Assembly (NCBI GenBank): GCA_963783385.1
Contig: CAWANJ010000003.1
Coordinates: 256,001 to 320,000 of the forward strand
Origin: an uncultured Gemmatimonadales bacterium
GTDB lineage: Bacteria > Gemmatimonadota > Gemmatimonadetes > Palauibacterales > Palauibacteraceae
DNA length: 64,000 nucleotides
Reading direction: 5' to 3'
This document shows, piece after piece, positions 8,305 to 45,330 of this stretch (position 1 is the stretch's first letter; every line of letters starts with the position of its first letter). The position numbers were made by a program, and so were the translations under genes. Under the pieces are notes generated by a model, which was not told the DNA's origin, ran no database searches, and was given only the letters and a program-made list of their open reading frames with translations.

Positions 8305-8972
8305 GCCGGCGGGTCCACGATCCATCCGTCTTCCAGCTGGATGACGCGGTCGCTGCAGGCCGCCACCGCGGGATCGTGGGTCACCTGGATGATGGTCGTT
8401 CCCTCGCGGTTGAGGCCCGAGAGCAGGTCCATGATCTTCTCGCCCTGGCTCGAGTGCAGGCTCCCGGTGGGCTCGTCGGCCAGGATGAGGCTCGGCTCGG
8501 CGATCACGGCCCGGGCCACGGCCACGATCTGCTGCTGCCCGCCCGAGAGCTGGGACGGGAACAGGTCCTTCTTCCCGACGATGTGGAACTGGTCCAGCAT
8601 GTCGGCCACCCGCGCCTCGCGCTCGGCGCGCGGGACGTCCCGGTAGGAGAGGGGGATCTCCAGGTTCTCGGCGACCGTGAGGTCGTCCAGCAGGTGGTAC
8701 TGCTGGAATACGAATCCGATGTGCTCCCTGTGGAGGCGGCTCCGCTCCTTGTTGGAGAGCTCGTGCACGGGCGAGTCGAGGAAGCGGTACTCCCCCCGGT
8801 ACGCGCCGTCCAGCATGCCGAGGATGCCCAGCAGGGTCGACTTCCCGGCCCCGGAGGGCCCCATGATGGTCACGAAGTCGCCGGCCCGGACGTCCAGGTC
8901 GATGCGGCGGAGCACGAAGGTCTCCCCGCCCTTGTAGCCGTAGGACTTCTCGAGGTTGCGTAGCTGGATCAA
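8301..8972 (-). CDS. ABC transporter ATP-binding protein (MacB/LolD-like), second ATPase of the unit
   Basis: GPSGAGKST, LSGGQQQ, LILADEPTGSLHS, VTHD; 223 aa. Confidence 0.93.
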   Translation of the reverse strand: MIQLRNLEKSYGYKGGETFVLRRIDLDVRAGDFVTIMGPSGAGKSTLLGILGMLDGAYRGEYRFLDSPVHELSNKERSRLHREHIGFVFQQYHLLDDLTVAENLEIPLSYRDVPRAEREARVADMLDQFHIVGKKDLFPSQLSGGQQQIVAVARAVIAEPSLILADEPTGSLHSSQGEKIMDLLSGLNREGTTIIQVTHDPAVAACSDRVIQLEDGWIVDPPA

Positions 8973-9019
8973 GGAAGAGCGCTCCGTTTCATGTGGACGG
9001 TCCGCGATGACGCCGGCAT
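8969..9019 (-). other. Bridging mini-ORF (16 aa, MPASSRTVHMKRSALP)
   Basis: ATG directly follows the permease TAG; its TGA overlaps the TTG start of the ATPase (TTGA). Confidence 0.3.
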
Positions 9020-11473
9020 CTACCGATCACGATCCCCGGGCGGCCGACCCTCGGCCCGCAGCGCCACGAGCGGGTCGACCCGTGTGGCCCGCAGCGCCGG
9101 GACCAGGCAGGCCGACAGGGTGGCCACGAGCGTCACGCCGAGCGCGACCCCCACGGTCCGCGGATCCGTCGGCGCCACGCCGAACAGCATGCTCCTCAGA
9201 TAACGGTTCAGAACGACCACGCCGATCATCCCAAGGATAGCCCCCCCCGCCGTCAGGCGCAGACCCCGGAGCAACACGCTGCGCAGGATGGCCCCCCGGC
9301 CGGCCCCGAGTGCCATGCGAATTCCGAACTCCCGCGTGCGTTCCGACACCGCATACTCGATCACCCCGTACATCCCGACCAGCACCAGGATCAGCGCGAC
9401 GCCCGCCACGCTCCCGAGCAGCACCGCCCGGAATCGCTGGGGGGCCACGCCCCGGGCGATGTCGGCGGCCAGCGTCGAGATCTCCGGGACGGGTTGCCGC
9501 GGGTCCACCGAGCGGATCGCCCGGCGCAGCGGTCCAGCGAGCACGCCCGCTCCGAGCCCGGAGCGCACGAGAAAGACGGCCTGGTGGCCCATCGTGATCT
9601 CCGGGACGGTCGACGGTCGCTGCCTGAACGGTATGTAGAAGCCCGGTCCCGGATCCCTGGCCAGGCCGCCGCCGCGGATGTCGGCCGCCACGCCCACCAC
9701 GGTGAGCCAGGCGTCGTCGCCCTCCTCGAAGCGGATCCGTCGACCGATCGGATCGCGGCCCGGGAAGGCCTCCCGCGCCATGGCCTCGTCGATGATCGCC
9801 ACCCTGGTGGCATCGCGGTCGTCACCCTCCCGGAACGAGCGGCCCCGGAGCATCGGGATCCCCACCGTCCGGAAGTAGTCGGGACTGACGACCCCGTACT
9901 GCGCCTGTCGCGCAGCGGTCTGTTCGACACCCTCGACCACGTAGTCGCGGATCGCGTGCCCGCGGTCGATGGGCAGGTTGTTGGCGAGCGCCGCGTGCTC
10001 CACGCCCGGCACGGCGCGCAGCCGCTCCAGGGTCCGGCGATAGAAGGCATCGAGCTCCGTCACGCCCTCGAAGCGCGTGGGAGGGATCCGGACCGCCACC
10101 GTCAGCACGTCCCTCGTGCGGAAGCCGGGGTCCCGCCCCGTCAGCAGGAGAAAGCTGCGCACCAGGAGCCCGGCCCCTACCAGGAGGACCAGGCCGAGGG
10201 CGATCTCCGTGATCGCGAGGCCTTCGCTCACCCTGTGGTGGCGGCCGGAGAGCGAGGGGCTGCGCCCGCCTTCCGCGAGATCCTCGTGCAGCGATCGCCG
10301 AGCGGTGAGGACGGCCGGGACGATCCCGAACAGGCAGCCGGTGGCGATCGACGTGCCCAGGGCGAAGAGCAGCACGGTGAGGTCCACGTGGACCTCGCCC
10401 AGGCGGGCCACGCCCGCCGGCGCCGCGTGCAGCAGCAGTCCGAGAGCCGGATGCACGACGAGCAGGCCCGCCAGGCCACCCAGCAGACACAGGACCAGGC
10501 TCTCCGTCATCAGGCGCTGGATCAGGCGGCGCCGGCCGGCACCCAGCGCCGCACGGATGGCCATCTCCCGGCGCCGCGCGTTGGCCCGCGCGAGCAGGAG
10601 GTTGGCGACGTTGACGCAGGCGATGAGCAGGAGAAGGGCCGTCGCGAGCTGTAGCAGGATCAGCGCCGTGCGGATGCCCCTCACCATCTCCGACTTGAGA
10701 GTGGCGAGCCGAAGTCTCCAGCGTTCGTTCGAGGCGCTCTCGGGGTGCCGGCTCCTGAACATCGAGAACTCATGGTCGAGAGCGGCCTGCGCCTGCTGGA
10801 CCGAGACACCGGGCTTCAATCGCGCGAGAGGGATGACCCACATCATCCGACCTTCGTCGTCCCGTGGCCGCAGGGCGAGCGGCGTCCAGATCCCCGGATC
10901 GTCGACGCGAGGCCCGAGCTGACGGAATCCGCGGGCGGTGACCCCGACGACCCGATGCGGCCTGTCGTTGAGCCGCACCGTTCGCCCCAGGATGTCGCGG
11001 CGCCCCGCGTACCGCGTCTGCCACACCCGGTAGCTGAGGATGGCCGCGGCAGGTGCGCCCGGCCGGGCGTCGGCGGCCGTGAAGTCACGGCCGATCGCCA
11101 TCCCCGCGCCCAGGAGCCCGAGGAGATCGGGCGTGACGCGCGATCCCGCCAGCTGGTAGGCGCGGTCCCCGTCGGTGATGGCGAACGGCTCGGGGGAGTA
11201 TGCGGCCACCCCCTCGAAGATCGTCGAACGGCGCTCCAGGCCCATCGGAATCTCGGCCGGGCTCCACGGCGCCTGTCCCAGGACCACCAGCTCCCCGGAT
11301 TGGGGGTAGGGCAGCGGCCGCAGGAGCACGGCGTCGACGACGGTGAACAGGGCCGTCGTCGCGCCGATTCCCAGGGCCAGGGTGAGGACGGCGATGACCG
11401 TGTAGCCAGGGCTGCGGCGGAGCTGCCGCAGCGCGAAGCGGAGGTCCTGGAGGAGGGCGTCCATGCGTGTCAC
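9020..11473 (-). CDS. ADOP-like duplicated MacB/FtsX ABC permease (array member 14, intact)
   Basis: 817 aa; [31 protein letters not shown], two FtsX domains, [13 protein letters not shown]. Confidence 0.93.
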
Positions 11474-11553
11474 CGCCTCGGCAGCGTGCGGTCCGACCGC
11501 GTCGGGGCGTTCCCGATCGATCTCCGAGCGGCCGTCGCTCCCTCCTCACTCAT
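11470..11553 (-). other. Bridging mini-ORF (27 aa, [27 protein letters not shown])
   Basis: Starts within ATGAGTGA at the end of member 13 and ends in a GTGA overlap with the start of member 14. Confidence 0.35.
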
Positions 11554-14008
11554 GACGGAGCGCCTCCATGGGGTCGATTCGGGTCGCACGGCGGATCGGC
11601 ACCCAGCAGGCCAGGGTCGCGGTCGCCGCCAGTACGAGCGCCGCGGCCACGAACGGCGCGGGATCCAGCGGCGAGATCTCGTACAGCTGGCCGCGCAGGA
11701 AGCGGCTGAGGGCCGCGGCCATCAGGAGGCCGGCGCCGAGCCCCAGGAGCGTGAAGCGAAGACCCTCGGCCAGCACGAGGCGGACGAGGTCTCCGCGGCG
11801 GGCACCGATCGCCATGCGGAGCCCCATCTCCCGTGTCCGTCCGGCCACGGAATAGGCCAGGATGCCGTAGAGCCCGACCGCCGCCAGCAACAGGGCGAGG
11901 ATCCCGAACGTCCCCAGGAGGACGGTGCTGAAGCGGTCCCGGGCCGTCACCCGGCTCAGTCGCTCGTCCATGGTGCGGACGTCCCACAGCGGGAGGCCGG
12001 GGTCGAGGTCCCGGACTACCGAGCGGGCGCTCGCCGCGAGCGCGTGCGGATCACCGGCCGACCGCGCGACCAGGTAGTTGGAGCGGTAGGAGAACTGGGG
12101 GTACGCCAGGTAGACGCCCGGCCGGGCCGGTTCCCGGAGGCTTCCTCCCACCACGTCACCGGCGACGCCCACCACTTCGGCCCACCCCTCCGAGGCATCC
12201 CACACGCTGAGCCGGATGCGCTGTCCGACGGGGTCGCGCCCGGGCCAGTATCGGTCGGCGGCGGCCCGGGTCACGATGGCCACCCGGGGCGTCCCTTCGC
12301 GGTCGCCCTCCTCGATGGAGCGACCCTCGACGATGGGGATCCCCATCGCGGCGAAGTAGCCGGCCGACACCATGTTCAGCCAGACCTCGTGCCCCTGGCG
12401 GTCGGACGTCGTCTCGCCCCGGATGCCCATGCGCACGTGGTCGCATCCGCCGCCCGCGACCGCGTCCGCGTGGGCCGGGAGGCAGTTGGCGACGGCGGCC
12501 GTCTCCACGCCCGGGCGCGCCTGCAGCCGGTCGACCGCCTCGGTGAACAGGGACGCGGCCTCGGCCCCCGAGTACCCCTGGCGGGGCACGTTCACCCACG
12601 CCGTGAACACGTGGTCGGGCCGGAAGCCCGGCGGCGTCGCGCGGAGCTGACCCAGGCTCCGGAGGAGCAGGCCCGCCCCGATGAGCAGCACCGTCGCCAC
12701 GGCGACCTCGGCGACCACGAGCACGGCGCGCGGTCCGCCCGCCCGGCGTCCGAGACCCGCGGACCCGAGCATGGTGGGGGCGTCGTGCCGGGTCGCCGCG
12801 ATCGCCGGCGCGGCCCCGAAGGCGAGGGCGGCCACGACGGCGACCAGGAAGTTGAAGGCGAGGACCGGTTCGGACAGGCCGAGCCCCTCCAGGGTCCCCG
12901 GGGCGGCGAGCGCCGCAGGTCTCAGACCGCGCACCAGGGACAGCCCGCCCCAGGCCACGAGGAGGGCGGCCCCACCGCCCAGGACGCCCAGCACCGCGGA
13001 CTCCGTCAGGAGCAGGCGGAGCAGGCGCGCGCGGCTGGCACCGAGCGCGACGCGCAGACCCAGTTCGCGGGACCTTCGAACGCCCCGCGCCAGGAAGAGG
13101 TTGGCCAGGTTGCTGCACGCGATCAGGAGCACGCAGCCGACCGCGGCCAGCAGGATGAGGAGCATGCGTCCGAGCGATCGGTCGATGCCGATGACTGCGA
13201 GGGATCTGGCGGCGAGGCCGACCTGCACGGGGCCGAAGGCGTCGGTGAACGGAATCCGCTCCGACACCGCCCGCGCGGCCGATGCGAGCTCCGCGGTCGC
13301 CAGGGGCGCCTCCGCCCGCGGGACCCGCGCGACCACCGAATGCCAGAAGGATAGCCGCTGCTGGAGGCGGTTCCTGAACACCAGCGTCGGCGCCATGGTG
13401 ATGGGCACCCACACGTCGGCCTCGCCGGAGAGGCCCGAGAACCCGGCCGGCATGATGCCGACGATCGTGAGCCGCACGCCGTTCAGGGTCACGGGCCGGC
13501 CCAGCGCGCCCGGGTCGCCGCCGAAGGCCGTGTGCCACAGGCCATCGCCGATGACGGCCACCGCCCCGGCGCCCGGCGCGGCGTCCTCGTCCGGGGCGAA
13601 CGTGCGACCGTGCGCGGCCGGCACCCCCAGCACTCCGAAGTAACTGGCCGACACGAGCTCGACCCGGGCCCGCTCGGGGTGGCCGGCGGCCGACAGGTTG
13701 TAGGTCAGCGCGTCCGGCGTGTAGGCGGCGACCGTGATGTCGCGGGCCGCATCCCGGAACGCCTCGTACTCCGGATAGGACCAGTAGCGCATCGAGTCGA
13801 CGGTCCCGCTCGGCTGCGTCAGCGTCGGCATCACGACCTGGAGCTGGTCGCTGTCCGGATAGGGCGGCCGGGCCAGCAGCACGGCGTACACGGCGGAAAA
13901 CACGGCCGTGTTGGCCCCGATCCCGAGCGCGAGGGTGAGCACGGCGACGACGACGAAGCCGGGCCTACGGGCCATCTGGCGGAGCGCGAAGCGGAGGTCC
14001 TGGATCAT
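11546..14008 (-). CDS. ADOP-like ABC permease (member 13, intact)
   Basis: 820 aa; same architecture, ends [13 protein letters not shown]. Confidence 0.93.
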   Translation of the reverse strand: MIQDLRFALRQMARRPGFVVVAVLTLALGIGANTAVFSAVYAVLLARPPYPDSDQLQVVMPTLTQPSGTVDSMRYWSYPEYEAFRDAARDITVAAYTPDALTYNLSAAGHPERARVELVSASYFGVLGVPAAHGRTFAPDEDAAPGAGAVAVIGDGLWHTAFGGDPGALGRPVTLNGVRLTIVGIMPAGFSGLSGEADVWVPITMAPTLVFRNRLQQRLSFWHSVVARVPRAEAPLATAELASAARAVSERIPFTDAFGPVQVGLAARSLAVIGIDRSLGRMLLILLAAVGCVLLIACSNLANLFLARGVRRSRELGLRVALGASRARLLRLLLTESAVLGVLGGGAALLVAWGGLSLVRGLRPAALAAPGTLEGLGLSEPVLAFNFLVAVVAALAFGAAPAIAATRHDAPTMLGSAGLGRRAGGPRAVLVVAEVAVATVLLIGAGLLLRSLGQLRATPPGFRPDHVFTAWVNVPRQGYSGAEAASLFTEAVDRLQARPGVETAAVANCLPAHADAVAGGGCDHVRMGIRGETTSDRQGHEVWLNMVSAGYFAAMGIPIVEGRSIEEGDREGTPRVAIVTRAAADRYWPGRDPVGQRIRLSVWDASEGWAEVVGVAGDVVGGSLREPARPGVYLAYPQFSYRSNYLVARSAGDPHALAASARSVVRDLDPGLPLWDVRTMDERLSRVTARDRFSTVLLGTFGILALLLAAVGLYGILAYSVAGRTREMGLRMAIGARRGDLVRLVLAEGLRFTLLGLGAGLLMAAALSRFLRGQLYEISPLDPAPFVAAALVLAATATLACWVPIRRATRIDPMEALRHE

Positions 14009-14064
14009 CTCAGTCTCCGGGCGTGGGCTGGGGGTCGGTGCGAGGTCCGCGGCCGGGCCATCAT
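14005..14064 (-). other. Bridging mini-ORF (19 aa, MMARPRTSHRPPAHARRLR)
   Basis: ATGA overlaps at both ends (14064-14061 and 14008-14005). Confidence 0.35.
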
Positions 14065-16483
14065 CCGTCCCTGAGAGCGTGGATCGGGTCGACCCGCGTG
14101 GCCCGCCGCGCGGGGATCCAGCAGGCCAACGCGGCTACGGCGGCGAGCGCCGCCGGCACCAGCAGGAAGGTGACCGGATCCAGGGGGGCCACGCCGTACA
14201 GGAGCCCGGAGAGCACCCGCACGGACAGCAGGGCCCCGACCAGGCCGATCGCGATTCCCGCCAGGACCGGGATCATCCCGAGCCGGAGCACGAAGCGCAG
14301 CGTGGTGGCGCGGTCCGCTCCCAGCACCATGCGGATGCCCAGCTCGCGTAGCCGGCGGGTCACGGCGTAGGACAGCACCCCGTAGATACCGATCAGGGCG
14401 AGGAGCAGCGCCAGACCGGCGAACGTGGCCAGGGTCATGACGTCGAAGCGCGGGCGGAGGATGGACGTCTCGACGATCTCCCGCATGCTCCGCAGCGAGT
14501 AGATCGGGAGCGTCGGGTCCAGGGCGCCCACGGCGGCGCGCACTGCGCCGGCCAGGGCCGTCGGGTCTCCGTCCGTGCGCAGGGCGAGCGCCATGCCGTG
14601 ACGGGGACTCTGCAGGTACGCTGAGGTAGGCGTGCGGGATAGCCCGGGCGATCGAGGCTCTCCGTCCGAACGCTCCCGACCACGCCGACGATCGTGTACC
14701 AGCGGTTCCCGTCGAAGGAGATGCGGTCGCCAATCGGGTCGTGCTCGCCCCAGTACCGCCGCAGCCATGGCGCGGTCGATCACGGCCACGGGCCGGTCTC
14801 CCGGGCCGTCCCGCGCGTCCGGGAGCCGTCCCCGCACCAGCGGGATCCCGAGCGATCGGAAGTAGTCGCCTCCCTCGGAGCACACGACCGCGTCCTGGAC
14901 GACGTCCGGGCCGGGCGCGGGCCTTCCCTGGATCCGGAAGGAGAGGTAGCTGACCCGCTCTGTAGCGGCAGGTCGGTGGTGGCGCCGGCGTCGGTGACGC
15001 CCGGGAGCCTCCCGACCCGAGCCAGCAGGCTGGTCCAGAACTCGCGGACTCGCGGATCGTCCGGGTAGCGGCCGTCCGGCAGCGACACCCGGGCCGTCAG
15101 GACGCCCGCGCGCGCGGAAGCCGGGATCGACGCCCTGGAGATGGGCGAAGCTTCGGATCAGGAGCCCGGCGCCCGACCAGGAGGACGAGGGCGATGGCCA
15201 CCTGTGCGGCCACGAGGCCCCGGTCGAGGACGCCACGTCCGATCGGGTCCCGCCGTGCGGGCCCCGTCGACCAGGCTCCCCGCGCAGGTCGGTCCGGGTG
15301 AGCCGCAGCGCCGGAACGAGGCCGAACAGCGCGGTCGTGACGAGCGCCGCGCCGAGGGCGAACAGGAGCACCGCGCCGTCCAGGCGGACCTCGCTCAGCC
15401 GCGGCAGCGCGCCGGGGTCGAGCCCCACCAGCGCCCGCGTGGCCCAGAAGGTCAGCAGGATGCCGAGTCCGGCGCCCAGCACCGAGAGCACGAGGCTCTC
15501 GGCCAGGAGCTGGCCGATCGAGGCGGCGGCGCGGCGCCCCGAGGGCGGCGCGCAGCGCCAGCTCGCGGCGCGCGGGCGGCGCCGCGGGCCAGGAGGAGGT
15601 TGGCGACATTGGCGCACGCGATGAGCAGGACCAGGCCCACGGCCCCGAGGAGCACGAGCAGGGCCGGGCGCACGTCGCCCACGATGCGCTCCCGGAGCGG
15701 GGTGACGGCCACGCTCCAGCCGGTGTTGGTGGCGGGGTACTGCCGCTCGAGACGGCGGCCAATGGCGGTCATGTCGGCCCGGCCCGCCTCGAGGGTGATG
15801 CCCGGCGCCAGGCGTCCCACCACGCCCAGGAAGTCGCTGCGCCGACCCTGGCCGGGGGAGCCGGGCCGGGGCGCCACCGGGATCCACGCCTGCGCCCAGG
15901 AGGGGAACTGGAAGCCGGGCGCCGTGATCCCGACCACAGTGTAAGGCTCCCCGTCCAGGGTGACCGCGCGCCCGATCACGTCCGGGTCGCCGCCGAAGCG
16001 GTCCTTCCACAGCGAGCGCCCCAGGACCACGACCTTGCCGGCTCCGGCCCGATCCTCCTCCGGCGTGAACCCGCGGCCGGGAGACGGACCCACGCCCAGG
16101 GTGCGGAAGAAGTCGGAGGTGACGCGGGCCGCGATGAGCCGCTCCGGCGGCCGTCCCTCGCTGCCGGCCAGGTTGAGGCTGGCGCCGGCGAAGGCCGTCA
16201 TGCCGGAGAAGGAGCGACTCTGCGCCTTCCAGTCCAGGAAGTCGGGCACCGAGGCGGCCTCGTTCCCGATCCCCTCCTTGTGGCCCTGGAGGAGGACGAG
16301 TCGGCTCGCCTCGGGGTAGGGCAGCGGCCGGAGCAGCACGGCGTCCACCACGCTGAACATGGCCGTGTTGGCGCCGATGCCCAGTCCCAGGGTGAGGAGC
16401 ACGACGGCGGTGAAGCCGGGATGGCTCCGCAGCTGACGGAGGGCGTAGCGCAGGTCCTGCTTCAGTGCGTCCAGCACGGTCAT
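14061..16483 (-). CDS. ADOP-like ABC permease (member 12, several frameshifts)
   Basis: [18 protein letters not shown] in ORF 15452..16816; C-terminus ATRVDPIHALRDG in ORF 14061..16010. Confidence 0.88.
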
Positions 16484-23848: not shown

Positions 23849-23868
23849 CGCTTCATCCCCTCCGTTCG

Positions 23869-26313: not shown

Positions 26314-26316
26314 GCT

Positions 26317-28724: not shown

Positions 28725-30363
28725 GGCGGAGCGCCTCCATGGGGTCGAGCCGGACCGCCCGGCGGGCCGGGATCCAGGTGGCGAGGGCGGCGGCGGCCGC
28801 CAGCACGAGAGCGGCGGCGGCGAGGCTGAGCGGATCGACCGGAGCCACGCCGAACAGGAGCCCCCGGACCAGCCGCGACAGGAGGACGGCGCCGGCCAGG
28901 CCGATCCCGATCCCGGCGCCGACCAGCCGCACGCTGGAGCGCGCGATCGGGACGGCGACGTCGCGGCGGCCGGCCCCGAGGGCGAGCCGCAGGCCGATCT
29001 CCCGGGTGCGGCTGGAGACGCCCTGGGCGATCACGCCGTACAGTCCGAGCGCGCCGAGCAGGAGCGCCACCGCCGCAAACACGCCCGCCAGGGCGAGGAG
29101 CACGCGCTGCCGCCCCAGGGAGGCGCTCACCACGCGATCCATCGTCACCACGCGAGCCAGCGGCAGGCGCGCGTCCACCGCGTGGACCGCCTGGCGCACG
29201 GGGCCCGCGAAGCCGGCGGGATGGCCCTTCGTCCGCACGGCCAGGGTCAGCGACCGCACCACGCTGCCCCCGTTCCAGAAGCGGAACTGGGCCTGTGACA
29301 GGTACATCTGGCTCGTGCGCGGCGCGGCCAGGCTCTCGTGGCGCACGTCGTCCGCCACGCCGACCATGGTGACCGTGCCGGGCCCCGCTCCGCCGCCGAG
29401 CACGAAGCGGGCGCCGAGGGGGTCCTGGCCGGGCCAGTAGCGCTCGGCCATGGTCCGGTCGATGACCACGGCGCCGGGCGCGTCGGCGACGTCCCGCCCG
29501 TCGAGCGCCCGGCCGCGCACCACGGTCATGCCCATGGCCGCGAAGTAGCCCGGGGTGACGACCTGCCAGTCCGCCTTCGGCGACACGGCCCCCTTCGGCA
29601 CGGGCCGCCCCTCGATGCGGAAGTTCAGGTCCCCGAGGCTCGAGCCCAGGGGGAGGTTGGACACGGCCCCCACCGCCTCGACGCCGGGAATCGCCGCCAC
29701 GCGGCGGCGCAGGGCCTCGAACGTGCCGATGACCCCCGGCTCGGTCGGATAGTCGGCCGGCGACAGCGTCAGCCGCCCGGTGAGCCGCAGGAAGTGGCTG
29801 CCGCGGTTCGTGACGTCCGCCGGATCCAGCGGCAGTGGAAGCACGGCTTCCGTGGCCTCGCCCACGCTCGGGTCGGACCCGAAGCGCTGCGCCCAGAGGC
29901 CGTGACTGATCAGCGCCACGTCGCGGTGCTCCTTCTGTTCGTCCGCGCCGTACGTCCGGCCCAGCTCGGGACGCACGCCCAGGGCCGGAAACAGGTCGGC
30001 CGTCGCGTACGCCACCCGTAGCCGGACCGGGCTCCCCGAGCCCACCAGGTTGGCGGCGTCGGTGGCGTACGCCCCCAGCGCGCTGAACGCACTTCCCACC
30101 GCGGCCCGGTAGTCCAGGTACTCGGCCGGCGAGACGTCCGCGCGCGGCGTGCCCTTCCAGGCGCTCGACACGGTCAGCACACGGTCCTGGCCGGGATAGG
30201 GCAGGGGCCGCAGCAGCGAGGCGTCAACCACGCTGAAGATGGCCGTGGTCGCTCCGATCCCCAGCGCCAGCGTGGCCACCACCAGGGCCGCGAAGCCGGG
30301 GCCGTGGCGGATCTGCCGAAGCGCGAAGCGCAGGTCCTGGCGAGCGCCGTCCAGCATAGTCAT
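28717..30363 (-). CDS. Internally deleted ADOP-like permease (member 6, 548 aa, single FtsX domain)
   Basis: Starts [15 protein letters not shown]. In-frame jumps at GSDPSVG|EATE and FLRLTGRL|TLSPADYP remove the first FtsX TM block. Confidence 0.82.
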
Positions 30364-32808
30364 TCCTCCCGGAGCACGGTGGCCGGCTCGAGCCGGGCGG
30401 CCCGCCGGGCGGGGAGGGCACAGGCGAGCATGGCCACGAGCGCAAAGCCGAGACGCCACGACGACGTACGTCAGGGGATCGAGGGCCCCGACCCCGTACA
30501 GGAGGCTGCCGAGCGCCCGACTCGCGGCCACCGAGACGGCCAGCCCACCGGCGAGTCCGGCGCCCACCGGGAGGAGTCCCTGCCGGAGGACGAGCCCGAC
30601 CACCTGCCCGGCGTGCGCCCCCATGGCCATCCGGACCGCGACCTCGCGGTCCCGCTGGCGGACGTAGTAGGCCATGACGCCGTACAGGCCGATGGCCGCC
30701 AGTAGCGTGGCGAGGACCGCGAACGAGACGAGCACGGTCATGAGGAAGCGTGGCTCGGCCCGTGCACTGGAGACCACGTGGTCCAGGGAGGCGATGCGCG
30801 CGAGCGGGACGCGCGGATCCAGATCGTGCATCACGCCGCGCACCGGCCCCACGAGGGCGCCGGGGTCGCCGGAGGTCCGCACGAGTACGCTCAGGCTGCG
30901 CATGGGGCCGCGAAGCACCGTGCCGGACTGTGCCTCGGGGATGTACCAGGTCGGGTGGGCGGACCCGGTGAGCGTGTTGTAGCTAACGCTACCGACCACC
31001 CCGATCACGGTCATCCATGGGGCGTCGTCTCCGGCGTGGATGCGGATCCGGTGCCCGAGCGGGCTCTCGCCCGGCCAGAAGCGTTCCGCGAACGCCCGGT
31101 CGATCATGATGGCGCCGGGGGCCCGCGGATCGTCCGTGGCGCGGAAAGTCCGGCCGGAAACGACCGGGATCCCGGCCGCCCGGAAGTAGCCCGGCGTGGC
31201 CACCTGCCAGTCGGCCGTGAAGGAACGACCCCTGGGGGGCTGCCGCCCCTCGATGTCGAAGTTCCAGTCACCGATGGACCCGCTGAGCGGCAGGGCCCGC
31301 ACGGCGCCGGCGTCCTGCACGCCGGGAATGCGCCGCAGGCGCTCCAGGAGACGGGCGTAGAACCCGTTCACGTCGGCGTCGTCCGGGAACTCGGCCGAGG
31401 GGAGAGAGATGCTGTAGCTCAGGACGCCCGCCGAGCGCACCCCGGGGTCCACGGCCGTGAGGCCCCAGAAGCTCCGCACCAGGAGCCCGGCTCCCACGAG
31501 CAGGACCAGGGCGAGCATGGCCTGCAGGCCGACCAGCACGCGCCGGAAGCGCAGTCGGGGGCCCCTCCCCATGGCGCCTCGGCCGCCTTCCCGAAGCCGG
31601 CCGGCCAGCCCGTCCCGACCCAGGTGGAGGAGCGGCGCGAAGGCGAAGAACAGGGCGCAGCCGGCCGTGACGAGCGCGGTCACGGCGAGCACGGGAAGGT
31701 CGAGGCGCACGTCGCCCAGGCGTGGCACGCTGCCCCCTCCGAGCCCGGCGAGCAGCCGGAGGGCCGAGAGCGCCACGCCGATTCCGAGCGCCCCGCCTCC
31801 GACGGCCAGGAGGCCTCCTTCCACGAACAGCTGTCGGGCCAGCGCCGCGCGTCCGGCTCCGAGGGCCGAGCGCACCGCGAACTCACGGCGGCGGGCCTCG
31901 AGGCGGGCGAGCAGGAGATTGGCGATGTTCACGCACGCGATGAGGAGGACGAAGCCCACCGCGCCGAGGAGCACCCACAGCGCCGCCCTCACGGACCCGA
32001 CCACCTGGTCCAGCACCGGGAGCGCGAAGGGCTCGAAGTGCATCTGGGGCGGGTAGGCACCGGTCTCCGCGTGGATGCGCCCGACGATCGTGCGGAGCTC
32101 GGCCGTCACCGAAGCGGTCGTGGCGCCCGGGGCCAGCCTCCCGACACCGTACAGGTAGTGGCTGCCGCGGGTGAGATTGGCCGGGTCGAGCACGAGGGGC
32201 ACGAACATCTCCGCGGGTCGCTGCGAGCCGAACTGCAAGGGCAGCCGGACGCCGGGCGGGAGGATGCCGACCACCGTGCGGGGCGCCCCGTCCACCACGA
32301 TCCTCCGGCCCAGGACCGAGGGATCCGCCCCGTACCGGCGGCGCCACAGCTCGTCCGCGAGGATCACGACATCGCTCGGTCCGCCCGGCCGACCTTCCTC
32401 CTCTCGGAAGGTCCGACCCCTCTCGGCCGAGACGCCCAGGACGTCGAAGACCCCGGGCGTCACGTCCGCGGCCGCCACCCGCTCGGCCCCCTGCTCACCC
32501 TCCAGGTTGGCGGCATCGGGGCTGAAGGCGGCCACGGAGGTCAGACCCTTCGCCTTGCGGTAGTCGAACAGCTCGGCCGGCGAGATCCACGTGCGCTCGT
32601 AGCCGGTCCAGCGGTTCCAGACCATCACCACGCGGTCGGGATGCCCGTAGGGGAGGGGGCGAAGGAGCACGCCGCGCACCACGCTGAAGATGGCCGTCGT
32701 GGCCCCGATCCCGAGCGCCAGGGTGACGAGAGCCACGGCGGCGAAGCCGGGGCTCCGGCGGAGCTGGCGAAGCGCGTAGCGCAGGTCCTGCTTCAGGGCG
32801 TCCAGCAT
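30360..32808 (-). CDS. ADOP-like ABC permease (member 5, one frameshift near 30450)
   Basis: [16 protein letters not shown]; its own C-terminus [16 protein letters not shown] ends at TGA 30362-30360 in another frame. Confidence 0.9.
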
Positions 32809-32810
32809 GC

Positions 32811-32921
32811 TCACTCCTCCGGCGACGGGCACATGGGCTCGGTCCCCGCGGCCGGCCGGGCCGGCGCACGGAAGATCGCGAGGTTGCGGCGAGCGCGGGC
32901 CGACCGTCCGACGGCTGTCAC
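32811..32921 (-). pseudogene. Collapsed permease relic / bridging mini-ORF (36 aa)
   Basis: [36 protein letters not shown] resembles the family tail PARRAARxDPMxALREE*; GTGA overlaps at both ends. Confidence 0.55.
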
Positions 32922-35344
32922 TCCGACCTCAGCGCCCGGACCGGATCGACCCGGGCGGCGCGCCGGGCCGGAATCCAGGTGGCGGCGGCGGCCACGGAGG
33001 CCAGGACGACCGCGGCGGCGGCCACGGTCGCCGGGTCCGTGGGCCTCAGGCCGTACAGGAGGCTGGAGAGCAGCCGCGACGAGACCAGCGTGCCGGCGAG
33101 GCCTATGGCGATCCCGGCCCCGACGGGAAGGAGCCCATCGCCGAGCGCTCGCCTGAGGATCCGGCCCGGCGTGGCGCCCAGAGCCATGCGGACCCCGAAC
33201 TCCCCGTGGCGCCCTCCCACCTGGTAGGCCATCACGCCGTAGACGCCCACAGCACCCAGGGCCAGGGCCAGGAGCGCGAAGAACGCGAGCACGCCCGCGA
33301 AGAAGCGCTCACGGGCCAGTGAGTCGGTCAGCACGTCCCCCATCAGCCGCGTCCGCGCCACCGGGACGTCGGGGGCCACGTCGTGCAGGGAGCGCGTCAT
33401 GGGCCCGATGAGGGCCGTCGGATCCCCCTCGGTCTTCAGGAAGACGTCCATGCCGGCGAGCGGGTACTGGGCCAGGGGTCGGTACATCTCCGGCCGGGGC
33501 GCCTCGCGCAGAGACCGCTGGTGGACATCGCCGACGACCCCGACCACCCGGAAGGGCTCCGAGCCGAACAGCTTGATCTCCTTGCCGACCGCGCTCTCGC
33601 CGGGCCACAGCTGTCGGGCCATCGTCGCATTGACGAGACCGACCGGGGCCCCGTCCTCGCGGTCGTCTGGACCCAGGAGGCGGCCCGCGACAAGCGGGAT
33701 GCCGAGCGTCCGGAAGTAGCCCGGCGTGACCACGCGGAAGTTGGCGCTGGGCAGCGGCGCGCCCTGCGGTGGCGGGTGGCCCTCCGCCAGGTACGGGAAG
33801 GCCCAGTTCCCGTCGGTGAGGGGCAGGAGCTGGATCGCTCCCACGCTCTCCACGCCGGGGAGGGCGCCGAGGCGGGCCTGGAGCTCCGAGTAGAGGGCGC
33901 GCGCCCGGCCACCGCCGCCTCCTTCGTAGGCATGGCTGGGGGGCTCGAGGCGGAGGTCCAGCACGTGATGCACGTCGAGGCCCGGGTCGACCGACCTGAG
34001 GGCGCGCAGGCTTCCGAGGAGCAGGCCGGCGCCCGTCACCACCACGAGGGCGAGCGCGACCTCGGCGGCGACGAGGACACGTCCGAGTCGGCGGCCGGAT
34101 CGGCTCCCCTCCGAGCGCCGCCCCTCACCGATTCCGGCCCGGATGGCGCCCGAGCTGGCCCGGAGCGCCGGGAGCAGGCCGAAGCCGACCGCGCATGCCA
34201 ATGAGACGCCGACCGCGAACGCGAGAACCCCGGGGTCGAGGGGAAGGGAGCCGGCCCGGGGCAGTCCCGAGATTCGAGACACCCTCAGCGCGGCGAGGAT
34301 CAGCCGGGCCAGACCGATCCCGGCCGCGCAACCCGCGAGGGATAGTACGAGGCTCTCCACGAGCTGGTCGCGGACCAGGCGGCTCCGGCCGGCCCCGAGG
34401 GCGGTCCGCACGGCCAGCTCCCGTTGGCGATGCTCGCCCCGGGCCAGCAGGAGGTTGGCCAGGTTCGCGCACAGCAGGAGGAGCACGAGCCCGACCGCGC
34501 CGAGCAGGGTCCACAGCGGCCGGCTCACGTCGCCGACCATGGACGCGAGCACGCCGGTCGCGCTCGCGGCGCGGACCGCGTCCCGGTCGATGACCTCCGG
34601 GAACCGGTCGTGCAGCCTCTCCATCGTGGCGCGGACCTCGGTCGCCACGCCATCCACGGTGGCGCCGGGCCGCATGCGGCCGACGATCGTGTTGACGTAC
34701 CACGTGCTGTCCGTGGCCACCGTCCGTCCGGGAGGCGCGTCGAGCGGCGCCCACGCCTGGAAATCGGAGCCATCCAGGGCGGCCGGGCCGTGAAAGCCAC
34801 GCGGCATCACGCCGACGACCGTCCGGAAAGCGTGGCCGTTGCCGTCGAGCGCCAGCCGACGCCCGACAATGGACGGGTCGCCCCCGAACCGGCTCTGCCA
34901 CAGCGACCAGCTCAGGATCACGACGTCCGAGCGGTCCCGATTCCGGTCGGCGGGCCGGAACGCACGGCCCAGGAGCGGCTGCACCCCGAACACTGGGAAG
35001 AAGCCGGCGTCGACCATCTGGGTGGGGATGGCCGCGGGCTCGCCCGCGCCGGTCAGGGTCAGGGTCCAGCCCGACAGGCCCGTCCACGCCTCGATGTCCG
35101 GGGCGCTCTCGGACACTTCCGTCGCCAGCGCGATGTTGGCGTTCTCTCCCGGCAGGAGCTCGACGAGCCGGTCCGGATGTGGGTACGGGAGCGGCCGGAG
35201 GAGGACGGCGTTCACGACCGTGAACATCGCCACCGACGCACCGACCCCGAGTGCGAGCGTGAAGATCACCGATAACGTGAAGCCGGGGCTGCGCGTCAGT
35301 CGTCGCAGGGTGTGGCGAAGGTCCCGGCGGAGAGCGTCACTCAT
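32918..35344 (-). CDS. ADOP-like ABC permease (member 4, intact)
   Basis: 808 aa, [16 protein letters not shown]...[13 protein letters not shown]. Confidence 0.93.
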
Positions 35345-37836
35345 GCCGGAGCGCCTCCATCGGGTCGATGCGCGCCGCCCGACGTGCGGGAAGCCAGGTG
35401 GCCGCCAGGGCCACGCCGGCGAGGAGGAGGGCGGCCAGCGCGAAGGTGGCCGGATCGAGGGTCGAGACGCCGAACAACATGGAGCCGAGGACCCGCGTCA
35501 CGGCCACGGCGCCCGCCAGGCCGAGGCCGACGCCGATGACCACCAGCGCCAGGTTCTCCCGGATCAGGAGACCCACCACCTGGCGGGGTCGGGCGCCGAT
35601 GGCCATTCGAAGGCCGATCTCCCGGGTGCGCTGCGCGACGGCGTAGGCCGTGATGCCGTAGATGCCCACCAGCGCCAGGAGGAGAGCCAGCCCCGCGAAC
35701 AGGGTTAGGAGCGTCATGCCCTGGCGTCGCGAGGCCGTGGAGCGCGAGAGCTCCTGGTCGAGACTCACGATCTCGCCGATGGGCTGGCCCGGGTCGATGC
35801 GCCGGACCGCCGACCGCACGGCCCCCGCCAGAGCCAGCGGGGTCTTGCGGGCCTTGAGGACGACCCACATCTGCGGGATCTCGCCCGCCTGAAGGACCGG
35901 CAGGTAAACCTCCGGCATCACGGTCGACTCGAGGGACGAGTAGTGGACGTTGCCGATGACTCCGATGACCACGGGGTGGGCATTCCCGATGCCGGGCATT
36001 CTCACCGGAAGGGTCTTCCCCACCGCGTCCTGGCCGGGCCACAGCTCGTCGGCCAGCGCGCGATTCACGATCACGACCTTGCGGGAGTCCGATCGGTCCG
36101 CCGGCGTGAAATCCCTTCCGTGGAGGGCGATTCCGGTGGCGGCGAAGTAGCGCGGTCCAACCACGCCGAACCGGACGAGCATGAACTCCCGCCCGGCGTC
36201 CGGTCGGATCGTGCGCGGGTCGAAGGCGAAGACGTTGACGCTCCGTGTGAGGGGAAGCGTGCGCGACAGACTCACCGCCGCGACGGCCGGATCGCGGGCC
36301 AGTGTCGTGGTCAGCGTCCCGAAGAAGTCGTCCTGTTGCCGCACGGTCGGATAGCGCGACGGTGTGAGCCTGACGCGCGCCGCCAGGACGTCCCGCGTGT
36401 CGTAGCCCGGGTCCACCGACATGAGGCGGATGAAGCTCCGAACCAGGAGCCCGGAGCCGACCACGAGAACGAGGGCCAGGGCCAGTTCCGCCGCGACGAG
36501 GGCGCTGTGGGTCCGCTTTCGTCGCCTGGATCCGGTGGTCGCGGTGCCTTCGGCCCTGAGGGCCTGCTCCATGTCGAAGGTCGTGGTCCGAAAGGCCGGG
36601 AGCAGGCCGAAGGCGAGGCCGGTGATGACGGATAGCCCAACCGCGAAGGCGAGGACGCCCGGGTCGATCCCGACCTCGCTCGCTCGCGGCACGTTCGTCC
36701 ACACGGCCAGGCCGGCTGCCAGTCCCCAGCGGCTCAGCAGCACGCCCAGCATCCCGGCCACCAGCGCCAGGAGCACGCTCTCGGTCAGGAGCTGCCGGAC
36801 CAGCCGACCGCGGTCCGCGCCCAGGGCTCGACGCACCGCCATCTCCCGGCGGCGCTCCGTGGCGCGCGCGATGAGCAGGCCGGCGGCGTTGGCGCAGGCG
36901 ATGAGGAGCACGAGCGCTACCGCGCCGAACAGGACGTACAGCGACGATCGCGCGTCCCCCACGACCGCCGCCTTGAGCGGCCCGATCTCCATTCGGAGGG
37001 ACCCGATCGCGGCGGCCGTCGGCGCGCCGGCCGGGGGCGGACCCTGGGCGCGCATCTCCACGCGCCGCTCGCCGCCGCTTCCCGGCTTCTCCCCTTCCTG
37101 GATGTGCCGGTTCAGGGCCTCGACGTCCGCGCGAGCGCGCTCGAGCGTGGCCCCCGGCGCGAGCCGCGCCACGTTCTGGAACGCGTAGACGTACCGTCCG
37201 AACTCGAGCTGCGGATTCGACCGGAACGCCTCCCCGATCGGGACCCAGAGCTGCGTCTCGTCGCTCGGGAAGCCGAAGCCGCGCGGCATGACGCCCACGA
37301 CGGTGAAGCTGCGGCCATCCAGGCTCACGGAGCGGCCGACGATCGTCGGATCGGAGCCGAAGTCCGTGACCCACATTCCTATGGCTCAGCACCGCGACAT
37401 GCGCATTTCGCTCGGAGTCCGTGAACGAGCGACCCACCGCGGGCGAACTGTCCAGGACCCGGAAGAGATCGGGCGAGACGACCGCGGCCCGGACCTCACG
37501 GGCCTCGTCGGCCAGGGCGAGGTTGAATCGCCGGGAGCTGTACGCCGCGACGCCGCTGAAGTCGGACGTGAGCTTCCGGGCGTCCTGCACGTCCGGATAC
37601 GACAGTCCGCTGCGGAAGGACGCGCCGCCCCGAGAGGAGAGTCTCGTGAGGTCGACCAGCCGATCCGCCTCCGGGTAGCGCAGCGGCCGAAGGAGGACCG
37701 AGTCCACCACGCTGAAGATGGCCGTGTTGGCGCCGATCCCGAGTGCCAGCGTCAGGATAGCCACGACCGCGAATCCGGGGCTCCGTCGGAGCTGCCGGAT
37801 CGCGAAGCGGAGGTCCTGGCGGAGCGTGTCGAGCAC
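35337..37836 (-). CDS. ADOP-like ABC permease (member 3, one frameshift near 37377)
   Basis: N-terminus in ORF 35341..37836, remainder in ORF 35337..37376. Confidence 0.9.
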
Positions 37837-37838
37837 GG

Positions 37839-37928
37839 TCAGGTCTCCCGGACCAGGCAGGGGACGCGGTGAACCCGGACGACCGTGAGCGTCGGGGCGT
37901 CGAACCGGAGCCGCCGCGCCTCACTCAT
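37839..37928 (-). other. Bridging mini-ORF (29 aa, MSEARRLRFDAPTLTVVRVHRVPCLVRET)
   Basis: Starts within ATGAGTGA at the end of member 2 and stops 2 nt before the GTG of member 3. Confidence 0.35.
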
Positions 37929-42738: not shown

Positions 42739-42797
42739 CGGCGTGCCTCCGTCGCGCGGCGCTTCTCGGCGCCGGCGGGTGCGCGGTGGGTCTCGGT

Positions 42798-42817
42798 GGC
42801 CGGGCGCGCGCCCGGCC
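42798..42817. repeat. Perfect 20-bp palindrome between the ATPase and the first permease
   Basis: GGCCGGGCGCGCGCCCGGCC. Confidence 0.5.
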
Positions 42818-42851
42818 GGGTGTGGTCGCCGTGCTGGGATCTACGGAACGA

Positions 42852-43637: not shown

Positions 43638-43680
43638 GGCGTCTCCCCTGGAGGGTGGGTCGGACCGGCTCCGCGCCGGT

Positions 43681-45108: not shown

Positions 45109-45239
45109 GAGCGCTCGCTTCGGGGCGCGGCGGCGGACGGCGGTCGAGACGTCATCGGGCGTGCTCTCCCCTGTGCGGTCGGGGTCGCGGTTTCGGAGCG
45201 CCGCCGACGGGCGGAGCCGTTCCGTCGGGGCTCTGCAGG

Positions 45240-45254
45240 GCAACGGTCGTACCA
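45240..45254 (-). promoter_or_regulatory. Sigma-54 -24/-12 promoter
   Basis: Minus strand reads TGGTACGACCGTTGC against consensus TGGCACG-N4-TTGC, with exact GG-N10-GC spacing. Confidence 0.82.
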
Positions 45255-45282
45255 TGCGCTCATAGCATCGTACGATATTGTG

Positions 45283-45295: not shown

Positions 45296-45330
45296 GCGGT
45301 GTCGCACGATCCGGCGCCCGGCGGCTGGAG

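Follow-up and report, generated by a model that had tools for sequence, protein, structure and literature searches.

In the 64,000-nt window analysed here (the whole stretch of DNA under study, which comes from an uncultured member of the Gemmatimonadota), 14 ADOP-family duplicated FtsX permeases (P1–P14) stand in tandem over 40 kb, and nearly every long spacer in the row holds a mini-ORF that touches the genes on both sides. Bridging is enriched over a frame-randomised null, and its frame is kept across insertions and deletions without conservation of the encoded peptides. The spacer ORFs could well be throw-away frames that relay ribosomes from gene to gene by termination-reinitiation. Ribosome hand-over along the row had been proposed in the original prediction, and it is the best-supported reading given the enrichment and the retention of frame through length changes. 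The accompanying terms, an "unbroken" chain with bridges in "all long spacers", do not fit the cluster as a whole: the ATPase1–P1 spacer has no bridge, and nine genes show frame breaks in the given sequence.

The permease row is flanked by an adaptor gene, two ABC ATPases and a sigma-54 two-component pair. The genes are as follows:

43681..45255, minus strand, HlyD-family periplasmic adaptor, gene 1 of the cluster (Pfam HlyD_3 and HlyD_D23; NCBIfam RND_mfp under cut-off)
42852..43637, minus strand, ABC ATPase 1, MacB/LolD/DarD-like
40317..42738, minus strand, ADOP permease P1, frame break near 42693
37921..40317, minus strand, ADOP permease P2, start overlapping the P1 stop (TGATG)
35337..37836, minus strand, ADOP permease P3, frame break at about 37380; the shifted frame remains open and its terminal TGA overlaps the P4 ATG
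32918..35344, minus strand, ADOP permease P4, starting at the ATG of ATGAGTGA
30360..32808, minus strand, ADOP permease P5, frame break near 30455 that fuses P5 and P6 in the given sequence
28717..30363, minus strand, ADOP permease P6, internal deletion (query residues 166–494 missing)
26317..28724, minus strand, P7, several frame breaks; short-read contigs have 1-nt indels at 26495 and 27058
23869..26313, minus strand, ADOP permease P8, 3 nt past the P7 stop
21374..23848, minus strand, P9, frame breaks in the 3' third
18918..21377, minus strand, ADOP permease P10, ATGA overlap
16480..18921, minus strand, P11, GTGA overlap; missing from G001 and G003
14061..16483, minus strand, P12, ATGA overlap, frame break near 15550
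11546..14008, minus strand, ADOP permease P13, TIGR03434
9020..11464, minus strand, ADOP permease P14
8301..8972, minus strand, ABC ATPase 2, TTG start
6939..8304, minus strand, sigma-54-dependent response regulator (RR), GTG overlapping the ATPase2 stop
5607..6928, minus strand, histidine kinase (HK), 10 nt past the RR stop, probable frame break near 6620

P13, the one permease scanned against NCBIfam, matched TIGR03434 with 832 bits against a cut-off of 622.3 and a full-length alignment of residues 2–820 to profile positions 2–803. The other permeases are paralogues of P13 with 31–41% identity. Two PF12704 (MacB_PCD) and two PF02687 (FtsX) domains per chain were found in the nine ORFs scanned for P1, P2, P4, the fused P5–P6, P8, P10, P13 and P14, and the broken permease copies show a single MacB_PCD/FtsX module. 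The ADOP family name alludes to "orphan" permeases, whereas here 14 permeases stand in one row between ATPases, an adaptor and a two-component pair.

Five mini-ORFs coupled at both ends had been predicted in the row, and all of them are present on the minus strand, exactly where they had been placed. A further one bridges the 43-nt gap between the adaptor and ATPase 1:

37839..37928, minus strand, mini-ORF 1, P2 to P3, 29 aa; ATG within the CATGAGTGA of the P2 end, stop TGA 2 nt ahead of the P3 GTG
32811..32921, minus strand, mini-ORF 2, P4 to P5, 36 aa; GTGA overlap with the P4 stop, stop TGA 2 nt ahead of the P5 ATG
14005..14064, minus strand, mini-ORF 3, P12 to P13, 19 aa; ATGA overlap at both ends
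11470..11553, minus strand, mini-ORF 4, P13 to P14, 27 aa; ATG within CATGAGTGA, TGA 5 nt ahead of the P14 ATG or overlapping an alternative in-frame GTG
8969..9019, minus strand, mini-ORF 5, P14 to ATPase 2, 16 aa; ATG directly after the upstream TAG, TGA overlapping the ATPase2 TTG start
43634..43684, minus strand, mini-ORF 6, HlyD to ATPase 1, 16 aa; GTG overlapping the HlyD stop (GTGA), TGA overlapping the ATPase1 ATG (ATGA)

The start codons of the six mini-ORFs lie at −5, −1 or +3 relative to the upstream stop, and their stops at +1, −5 or −8 relative to the downstream start, so that the overlap or few-nucleotide spacing typical of termination-reinitiation is found at both ends of each. 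With them, six of the seven cluster spacers of at least 25 nt are bridged, which we count in favour of the relay, as we do the GGAG or GAGG found within each mini-ORF, 5–11 nt ahead of the downstream start in all six cases. The same motif argues in the other direction as well, since a downstream gene with its own Shine-Dalgarno motif need not depend on a relay. The conserved permease end His-Glu-TGA provides the mini-ORF start codon at no cost.

The short permease junctions were also as described beforehand (TGATG, ATGAGTGA, ATGA, ATGAATGA, a 3-nt gap, ATGA, GTGA and ATGA), except that the 20-nt P8–P9 gap was absent from that list. In contigs of three runs this gap is 19 nt, with a 1-nt difference at 23857, and at 19 nt the GTG of the P8 stop shares its frame with the TGA that overlaps the P9 ATG (frame arithmetic by hand). 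ATPase 2 and RR are joined by a GTGA overlap, and RR and HK are separated by 10 nt. In all, 9 of the 18 cluster junctions are of the −1, −4 or −8 type, and two more are the gaps of 3 and 10 nt. The sole long spacer without a bridge is the following:

42739..42851, minus strand, ATPase1–P1 spacer, 113 nt

It contains a 4-codon ORF (GTGA ... TAG) followed by two GC-rich hairpins, and there is no stop codon in it near the P1 start. The lack of a bridge here counts against the relay.

To assess chance, a spacer was scored as bridged when an ORF start began −9 to +5 from the first base of the upstream stop and the first in-frame stop began −10 to +1 from the downstream start. The null model held the spacer ends fixed, shuffled the interior and randomised the frame. 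The null probabilities for spacers 1–5 were 0.61, 0.29, 0.67, 0.60 and 0.46, and that for the spacer of mini-ORF 6 was 0.27. A frame match had been put at about one in three per spacer, which is too low for CATGAGTGA ends, where the probability is about 0.6 because starts are offered in two frames; stop codons are rare at 73% GC, as had been noted. Bridging of all four permease-permease spacers had p = 0.073, that of five of five p of about 0.033 (hand product), and that of six of seven long cluster spacers p of about 0.009 (by hand, on a hand-curated list whose seventh spacer has probability 0). On its own the window is thus no more than suggestive, and the bridging rule was shaped on the same five spacers, which weighs against the relay. 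The shuffled-spacer simulation that had been proposed favours the pattern over the null weakly (p of about 0.03 for five of five), and chance explains much of it.

Independent spacers gave a clearer result. With the rule fixed on the window, a same-genus set drawn from outside the window spacers and their orthologues had 6 of 9 spacers bridged (2.04 expected, p = 0.0027). Genome-wide in G000, with the array left out, 51 of 492 same-strand spacers of 25–150 nt were bridged (25.1 expected), as counted with a home-made gene finder that placed 6 of 11 known permease starts exactly and on an assembly with indel errors. Among these 51, 38 begin with XTGA at the upstream stop and 41 finish with NTGA at the downstream start. 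In G019, a closed genome of the same family sampled over 1.6 Mb, 20 of 233 spacers were bridged (11.2 expected, p = 0.0016). These counts favour the relay. Against it stand the other genera of the family, where 4 of 17 spacers were bridged (2.46 expected, p = 0.18). In distant phyla, 4 of 15 were bridged (1.41 expected, p = 0.018), two of these four being paralogous copies on one contig. Bridging is not special to the permease operon but a genome-wide tendency.

Composition together with conserved gene ends may produce the whole pattern, with the frames agreeing by accident or because of some unrelated phase bias, and without selection; we regard this as possible, but on the unlikely side. At 73% GC stops are rare, Glu-TGA and His-Glu-TGA ends give a free GTG and ATG, and the far end can be made by a second codon starting with A or by a TGA that happens to follow the Shine-Dalgarno motif before the start. 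Null probabilities accordingly reach 0.29–0.67 per spacer with the ends fixed, and 56–100% of bridged spacers stay bridged under interior shuffles that keep the frame. The non-significant count in the other genera of the family fits this reading as well. Moreover, gaps of 1 (mod 3) are in general excess in G000 even in spacers without the motifs (93 of 222), and the chance expectation is therefore raised. The enrichment nevertheless outlasts this raised expectation: spacers with both motifs are in the matching phase in 42 of 64 cases, with p = 1.3e-7 against 1/3 and p = 1.1e-4 against the 0.419 of motif-free spacers. The corresponding test in G019 was not significant (9 of 18), which is a point against the relay, whereas the bridging counts themselves replicated both there and in the same-genus set. 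A by-product of composition also sits poorly with a frame that survives length changes of 54 and 29 nt, and with the position of the GC excess. In 17 pooled spacers, the bridging frame has GC contents of 0.81 at the third, 0.72 at the first and 0.70 at the second position, compared with 0.75, 0.73 and 0.71 in unbridged spacers; the third-position excess thus lies in the bridging frame, in favour of the relay. The statistical support for ribosomes passing from gene to gene is modest.

Comparison with orthologous loci showed which features are retained. Spacer 1 is 84 nt long in two genomes and 54 nt shorter (30 nt, with an 11-aa ORF) in G001, and it is bridged in all three. Spacer 3 is 81 nt in G003 (mini-ORF of 27 aa) and 52 nt in the window, a difference of 29 nt, and both versions are bridged. 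Mini-ORF 4 has 27 aa in three of three genomes, with peptides so diverged that they are almost unalignable. Conservation of the spacer frames in relatives, which had been suggested as a check, was thus found across the 54-nt and 29-nt changes, but the conservation of bridging is not strict. In G001, spacer 3 lacks a start codon at the stop and the Px–P5 spacer does not have the matching frame, and in G003 spacer 5 is open in frame without ATG, GTG or TTG; these three cases count against the relay. In G001, spacer 5 takes a different frame, with a GTG 8 nt ahead of the stop. Overlap junctions of the window correspond to bridged spacers of 58, 76 and 84 nt in G001, and one junction ranges from −8 to +109 nt among congeners. 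Length and frame, rather than the peptides, appear to be conserved.

It is improbable that the spacers are relics of array turnover, in which deleted permeases or displaced 5' ends left an old start and stop with no present function. The array is indeed fluid: P11 occurs in the window only, G001 has an extra permease exactly at the site of spacer 2, and in G003 that spacer is gone, leaving a gap of 2 nt. P6 has its large internal deletion, and P12 is a mosaic, 95% identical to its G003 orthologue towards the N-terminus and 65% towards the C-terminus. The ATG of ATGAGTGA at which P4 begins in the window opens a mini-ORF of 31 aa in G001, and the raised third-position GC could be a waning coding signal. 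However, permease N- and C-terminal profiles, run against 34 spacers in all three frames, matched none from the window or from genus g1 (best E = 0.13), and the sole match below 0.01 was an unbridged G022 spacer. In a sensitive blastn search of all the sequence collected for the analysis, spacer 2 DNA gave matches no better than GC-rich noise, and it has no real match in the genome. The second-position GC of 0.70 also differs from the 0.52–0.56 of genes. Relics alone would give no excess of bridging, because a random deletion keeps the frame one time in three.

A dispersed repeat family of the MIRU kind was considered and rejected. In a blastn-short comparison of the 34 spacers, the orthologous spacer 1 pair alone matched. 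A repeated 111-nt spacer was seen on the distant contig L043.

That the mini-ORFs code for functional small proteins, such as membrane peptides working with the permeases, is very improbable. They are open frames with a start and a stop, and the spacer 1 peptide is identical at 26 of 29 residues (29 aa in both) between the window and G003. However, the DNA identity of spacer 1 (96.4%) is not above its flanks (96.2% for the whole locus), and the G001 orthologue is short by 18 of the 29 codons. The spacer 4 peptides keep a constant length while almost losing alignability, and the mini-ORF peptides are rich in Arg, Pro, Ala and Gly, with a composition unlike that of genes.

Least probable of all, and largely refuted for the five spacers, is an assembly artefact in which indel errors made the spacer frames wrong: 1-nt indels relative to short-read contigs do occur at at least 12 places in 20 kb, one of them inside the P8–P9 gap, but none lies in spacers 3–5, and the relatives' own assemblies also have bridged spacers. 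One short-read contig of run X1 spans spacers 3–5 without gaps there (2 substitutions and 1 indel over 8203–14425, the indel being at 8259, outside the spacers), and the X4 and X6 contigs have no gaps over the same three. Two metagenome contigs from other assemblies match spacer 2 and its flanks at 100% identity over 331 nt, and spacer 1 has an equal length in the congener G003. The spacer frames thus held in these comparisons.

In the given sequence, frame breaks occur in nine genes (P1, P3, P5, P7, P9, P11, P12, RR and HK), and P7, P9, P11 and P12 stop 0.4–1.4 kb into the gene. These breaks may be assembly errors, because many are contradicted by short-read contigs, or they may be strain differences. 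P11 differs from such contigs by five 1-nt indels (net −3), and the RR break near 8259 is not present in the X1 contig. P8, P10, P13 and P14 have no frame breaks relative to G003, which had first suggested decay elsewhere; pseudogene decay was set aside because short-read contigs have 1-nt indels at the same places.

Spacer RNA gave no sign of a regulatory structure. Shuffled sequences folded as well as the seven spacers examined (z from −0.66 to +1.38), and hence there is no obvious structure that translation would melt, which counts against the relay. No Rfam family matched within 5000–46000. Within 28000–46000 there were no promoter-like sites, as judged by a sigma-70 consensus that may not apply to this phylum, and two terminator-like sites, no more than in shuffles. 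A leader-peptide attenuator was rejected on these grounds of folding, of terminators within 28000–46000 and of Rfam families within 5000–46000. Rho is encoded in the genome, a point in favour of the relay.

On the relay reading, a ribosome finishing a permease gene at UGA would restart at an AUG or GUG overlapping the stop or at most 5 nt away, and would then read 11–47 codons of arbitrary peptide. The relay would end at a UGA that overlaps the next start or precedes it by at most 8 nt, past the Shine-Dalgarno motif serving that gene, where the ribosome would restart again. A gap of 47–109 nt, too long for direct termination-reinitiation, would thereby become two tight junctions, and the RNA would remain under ribosome cover. 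Selection would be weak and genome-wide in the lineage, and its target would be the frame and its openness, not the peptide. In the ADOP array such a relay would cost little, as its start is already contained in the conserved His-Glu-TGA end. Translation of the mini-ORFs, reinitiation, and a benefit through coupling or through protection from Rho are what we infer from sequence, and so is the protection of distal genes from polarity, which would follow from them.

The principle is already known from NUGA-coupled uORFs, MIRU ORFs and bicistronic designs. Coupling is described as fading past about 30 nt, with classical operon spacings of −4, −1 and −8, and a short ORF is said to be able to "deliver" a ribosome (PMC12548453). 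Nine junctions of the cluster are of these classical types, and the six bridged spacers would stretch the principle to 43–109 nt via an intermediate ORF. Synthetic bicistronic designs are presented there as using a short leader ORF for such delivery (PMC12548453). As in those designs, the Shine-Dalgarno motif of the gene lies in the 3' end of a short ORF whose stop overlaps or abuts the gene start, but the designs are engineered with a strong initiation site of their own, whereas initiation of the short ORF here would be reinitiation at the previous stop. Such designs are known as "BCD", a name associated with Mutalik et al. 2013. MIRU ORFs, which according to Supply et al. in 1997 are said to overlap both neighbouring genes, are likewise oriented with the operon and coupled to the neighbour genes. 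MIRUs form a repeated, apparently mobile family, whereas the spacers described here evolve fast and have no mutual similarity. A review describes the MIRU as an intercistronic operon insert with a small ORF at −4 spacing to the downstream gene, and this coupling as the reason why the insert spares expression (PMC12548453).

A close likeness is to Mycobacterium tuberculosis, where a uORF can share NUGA with the following ORF or with a second uORF and where coupling may suppress Rho termination (D'Halluin et al., bioRxiv 10.1101/2022.06.01.494293). Those uORFs and their termination-reinitiation (TeRe) share with our spacers short, non-conserved ORFs whose stop overlaps the next start by 4 nt, such overlaps strung together from uORF to uORF and from uORF to gene, high GC, and a proposed role of tight coupling against Rho-dependent termination. 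They differ in lying in 5' leaders and in having been detected by Ribo-seq, whereas the present ORFs are intercistronic, join a gene at either end, and are predicted from sequence statistics in an uncultured Gemmatimonadota genome.

We propose only tentatively that relay ORFs are a pervasive, selected means of end-to-end operon translation in high-GC bacteria, beyond this array. If so, intercistronic gaps of up to about 150 nt would favour lengths of 1 (mod 3) genome-wide, the phase that lets an ORF run from XTGA at the upstream stop to NTGA at the downstream start. In this phase, the long alternative frame of the upstream gene, free of stops, also runs out just where the next gene begins. Array junctions could then grow and shrink freely with coupling kept. 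If the pattern is instead a by-product, it is a caution that at 73% GC an ORF tied to both neighbours arises by luck with a probability of 0.3 to 0.67, given the ends. If the relay is true, many "intergenic" operon spacers in high-GC bacteria would be translated on purpose, with consequences for gene annotation, as such ORFs are no protein genes, and for operon engineering in GC-rich hosts. Spacer indels would be read differently, since a 1-nt change could be polar. The relay would also explain how long arrays of paralogous membrane proteins stay co-expressed despite the quick turnover of their junctions.

The window has a GC content of 73%, and its source genome (3.54 Mb) was assembled in 9 contigs. 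Sequencing runs containing this DNA carry the labels salt-marsh and sediment metagenomes. The features under study are as follows.

45255 down to 5607, minus strand: single co-directional gene cluster, in the order HlyD-family adaptor, ABC ATPase (ATPase1), 14 tandem permeases (P1-P14), second ABC ATPase (ATPase2), sigma-54-dependent response regulator, histidine kinase
37839-37928, within the cluster: spacer 1, after P2
32811-32921, within the cluster: spacer 2, after P4
14005-14064, within the cluster: spacer 3, after P12
11470-11553, within the cluster: spacer 4, after P13
8969-9019, within the cluster: spacer 5, after P14

Each of the 14 permeases has about 800 residues with two MacB_PCD plus FtsX modules. 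P13 is a full-length duplicated permease of the ADOP family (TIGR03434, 832 bits vs a cut-off of 622) and shares 31-41% identity with its paralogues. P6 (28717-30363) lacks the segment matching P13 residues 166-494, and P5 and P6 are joined in frame in the given sequence, forming a 1363-codon ORF. The other (+) strand encodes a further ADOP-like permease at 3114-5500, with tblastn pieces spread over all three frames in the order 3, 1, 2.

The original prediction described an unbroken coupling chain, in which permease junctions overlap or leave 3 nt and each of the five longer spacers holds a mini-ORF that starts at the upstream stop and ends at the downstream start (a bridged spacer). The overlapping and 3-nt junctions match this description, and all five mini-ORFs are present at the coordinates claimed for them. 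A sixth of the same kind (16 residues, GTGA ... ATGA) was found in the gap between the HlyD-family gene and ATPase1, giving six bridged spacers in the cluster. Overlaps of -1, -4, or -8 make up nine of the 18 junctions; two others leave 3 and 10 nt, the latter between the regulator stop and the kinase start, and P8->P9 has a 20-nt gap. The response regulator starts with a GTG overlapping the stop of ATPase2. The sole unbridged long spacer is ATPase1->P1 (113 nt, 42739-42851), which contains a 4-codon ORF followed by two strong GC-rich hairpins that lack a U tract; processing, pausing, or termination might take place there and divide the cluster into two units.

A rival reading, composition combined with conserved gene ends, is possible but less than probable. 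At the permease C-termini the sequence reads ...Arg-His-Glu-TGA or ...Glu-TGA; CATGAGTGA supplies one ATG and one GTG, in the two non-gene frames, GAGTGA supplies GTG, and GGAG or GAGG, followed by TGA, lies ahead of every downstream start. Much of the bridging pattern comes free from the permease ends and the TGA ahead of the starts. A spacer was scored as bridged when an ORF start begins -9 to +5 from the upstream stop and its first stop begins -10 to +1 from the downstream start. The null model kept both spacer ends, shuffled the interior, and randomised the frame. The null probabilities for the window's five spacers are 0.61, 0.29, 0.67, 0.60, and 0.46. This null gives p = 0.073 for four of four bridged spacers and, calculated by hand, p ~0.033 for five of five; six among the seven long spacers of the cluster give p ~0.009, also by hand. 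The window's own statistics are weak because the rule was shaped post hoc on the same five cases.

Junctions in related arrays were located with N- and C-terminal profiles made from the window's permeases. Among 79 permease-to-permease junctions from the source genome and 11 other genomes of the family, which are few and in part related to one another, 34 have gaps of at least 25 nt, and 17 of these are bridged. Bridging is concentrated in the genus of the window (13/17 vs 5.95 expected); the other genera of the family give 4/17 vs 2.46 (p = 0.18). When the window's spacers and their five orthologues were left out and one further contig was added, the same-genus set still had six of nine bridged vs 2.04 expected (p = 0.0027). 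In distant phyla the count is 4/15 vs 1.41 (p = 0.018), with two of the four being copies of one repeated 111-nt spacer on a single contig. These homologous copies, at L043:4795-4909 and L043:7426-7540, belong to an ADOP array from a Pirellulales MAG (61% GC). They contain an inverted repeat, and in each a 37-40-aa ORF terminates in an ATGA at the start of the following permease.

Genome-wide counts were made with our own simple gene finder, which combines codon log-odds with filters on GC by codon position and a bonus for Shine-Dalgarno motifs; of 11 known permease starts, six were hit exactly and two more were missed by no more than 6 nt. With these gene calls, and with indel errors present in the assembly, 51 of 492 same-strand gaps of 25-150 nt outside the array are bridged in the source genome vs 25.1 expected. 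Among the 51, 38 begin as XTGA and 41 finish as NTGA, and their composition is not gene-like, save for a few plainly shifted gene ends. Gaps with both motifs fall in the one matching phase in 42 of 64 cases (p = 1.3e-7 vs 1/3; p = 1.1e-4 vs the 0.419 seen where both motifs are missing). In a 1.6-Mb sample of a closed genome of the same family (G019), 20/233 are bridged vs 11.2 expected (p = 0.0016); its both-motif phase test is not significant (9/18). The baseline is thus about 9-10% of gaps vs 6/7 in the cluster, an excess largely due to the conserved gene ends.

Co-directional gap lengths in the source genome also show a period of 3: gaps of 1, 4, 7, 10, 13, 16, and 19 nt number 26, 19, 21, 12, 19, 15, and 12, and neighbouring lengths 3-13. 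Phases 0/1/2 are occupied 49/132/59 times at 0-24 nt and 52/85/48 at 25-60 nt, independently of start-codon choice, with no bias above 150 nt (57/60/74). G019 shows the bias less strongly (36/52/37 and 23/49/42 for the two shorter classes). A study pooling co-directional pairs over 530 genomes reports no phase bias (PMC2784483).

Junction architecture changes quickly among congeners. The P1->P2 spacing goes from -1 in the window to +10 in the congener G001. At P3->P4 the window and a second congener, G003, both have -8; in G001 the spacer is 84 nt long and is bridged by an ORF of 31 aa that uses the same ATG as its start. P5->P6 and P6->P7 overlap in the window and are bridged spacers of 58 and 76 nt in G001. 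P4->P5 measures 109 nt in the window and 2 nt in G003, and in G001 it holds an entire extra permease and an unbridged 79-nt spacer. P11 (16480-18921) occurs only in the window among the compared congeners (G001:C123, G003:C57), and the array of a third, G002, is far shorter. Wherever spacer length changed and the start remained, the bridge was kept: spacer 1 shrinks from 84 to 30 nt and so loses 18 codons, spacer 3 grows from 52 to 81 nt with its stop shifting from +1 to -4, and spacer 4 gains 2 nt after the ORF's stop. The orthologues that lost the start, spacer 3 in G001 and spacer 5 in G003, are unbridged.

This turnover would suit mini-ORFs that are mere relics of array rearrangement, a reading we consider improbable; no similarity of the spacers to permease ends or to one another was found. 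That they encode small proteins is very improbable. GC at bridging-frame positions 1/2/3 is 0.72/0.70/0.81 (17 spacers pooled, some orthologous), and the third-position value in four of the window's spacers is 0.82-0.93; in genes the third position has ~0.90-0.95 and the second 0.52-0.56. The peptides are not conserved: those of spacer 4 in the three genomes have little in common apart from Met-Ser-Glu, a part of the permease end. Predicted folds of the spacers are no more stable than those of shuffled sequences; no Rfam family was matched in 5000-46000, and promoter- or terminator-like sites are not in excess in 28000-46000.

Assembly error as the source of the bridges is the least credible explanation. 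On paper, 9/19 genes of the cluster (5607-42738) are broken. Logan contigs from four runs were compared with window 8200-28199; X1 is possibly the source sample, and X4 and X6 come from other studies. One X1 contig spans 8203-14425 with two substitutions, one of which (14041) is synonymous within mini-ORF 3, and one indel (8259). No gaps occur over spacers 4 and 5 in X6 contigs or over spacers 3 and 4 in X4 contigs; the X4 contig across spacer 5 has one gap somewhere along its length. Spacer 2 and its flanks are identical in two metagenome contigs, and spacer 1 has equal length in G003 (96% identity). The five spacer frames, which polishing might have changed, therefore stand. The indels fall at or near spots where genes look broken.

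1-nt indels, contigs vs window
8259: regulator
14617, 14635, 14762: P12
17117, 17351, 17488, 17573, 17597: P11, net -3
23857: G run within the P8->P9 gap
26495, 27058: P7

In the given sequence, premature stops occur in P7 (after 148 codons), P9 (555), P11 (463), and P12 (343), with further frame changes in P1, P3, P5, the regulator, and the kinase. At least in the checked stretch, these may be assembly errors or strain differences; in either case, the given sequence does not support the word "unbroken". Depth was low in all four runs at 21540-22873 (3' part of P9) and 14203-15536 (P12). P12 (14061-16483) is a mosaic: identity to the G003 orthologue is 95% over residues 1-298 and drops to 65% over residues 322-802, with the frame break at the seam, which suggests recombination or gene conversion between paralogues. 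P3 (35337-37836) is shifted near 37380; its wrong frame remains open for ~680 codons, up to a TGA that overlaps the ATG of P4, so the "coupled" junction outlives the frameshift on paper. Open frames come cheap at this GC.

ORFs of MIRU elements are said to overlap both neighbouring genes, as reported in 1997. Near precedents are bicistronic expression designs, MIRU inserts with ORFs coupled at -4 (review PMC12548453), and NUGA-overlapping uORFs in M. tuberculosis (preprint 10.1101/2022.06.01.494293). The repeated Pirellulales spacer looks nearer the MIRU situation. The window's ORFs differ from these precedents: they lie between cistrons, are tied at both ends, belong to no repeat family, turn over fast, and are visible as a statistical excess in two genomes. 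A search of the available literature for bridging ORFs and for phase bias in co-directional gaps yielded the papers cited here and no description of non-repetitive intercistronic ORFs coupled at both ends, which does not prove absence.

The most likely mechanism, with about an even chance of being right, is a throw-away ORF with termination-reinitiation at each end. A study cited in the review PMC12548453 found coupling to be small or absent beyond ~30 nt, and the M. tuberculosis preprint suggests that coupling counters Rho, which the source genome encodes. A relay ORF would divide a gap too long for direct coupling and would keep the RNA translated.
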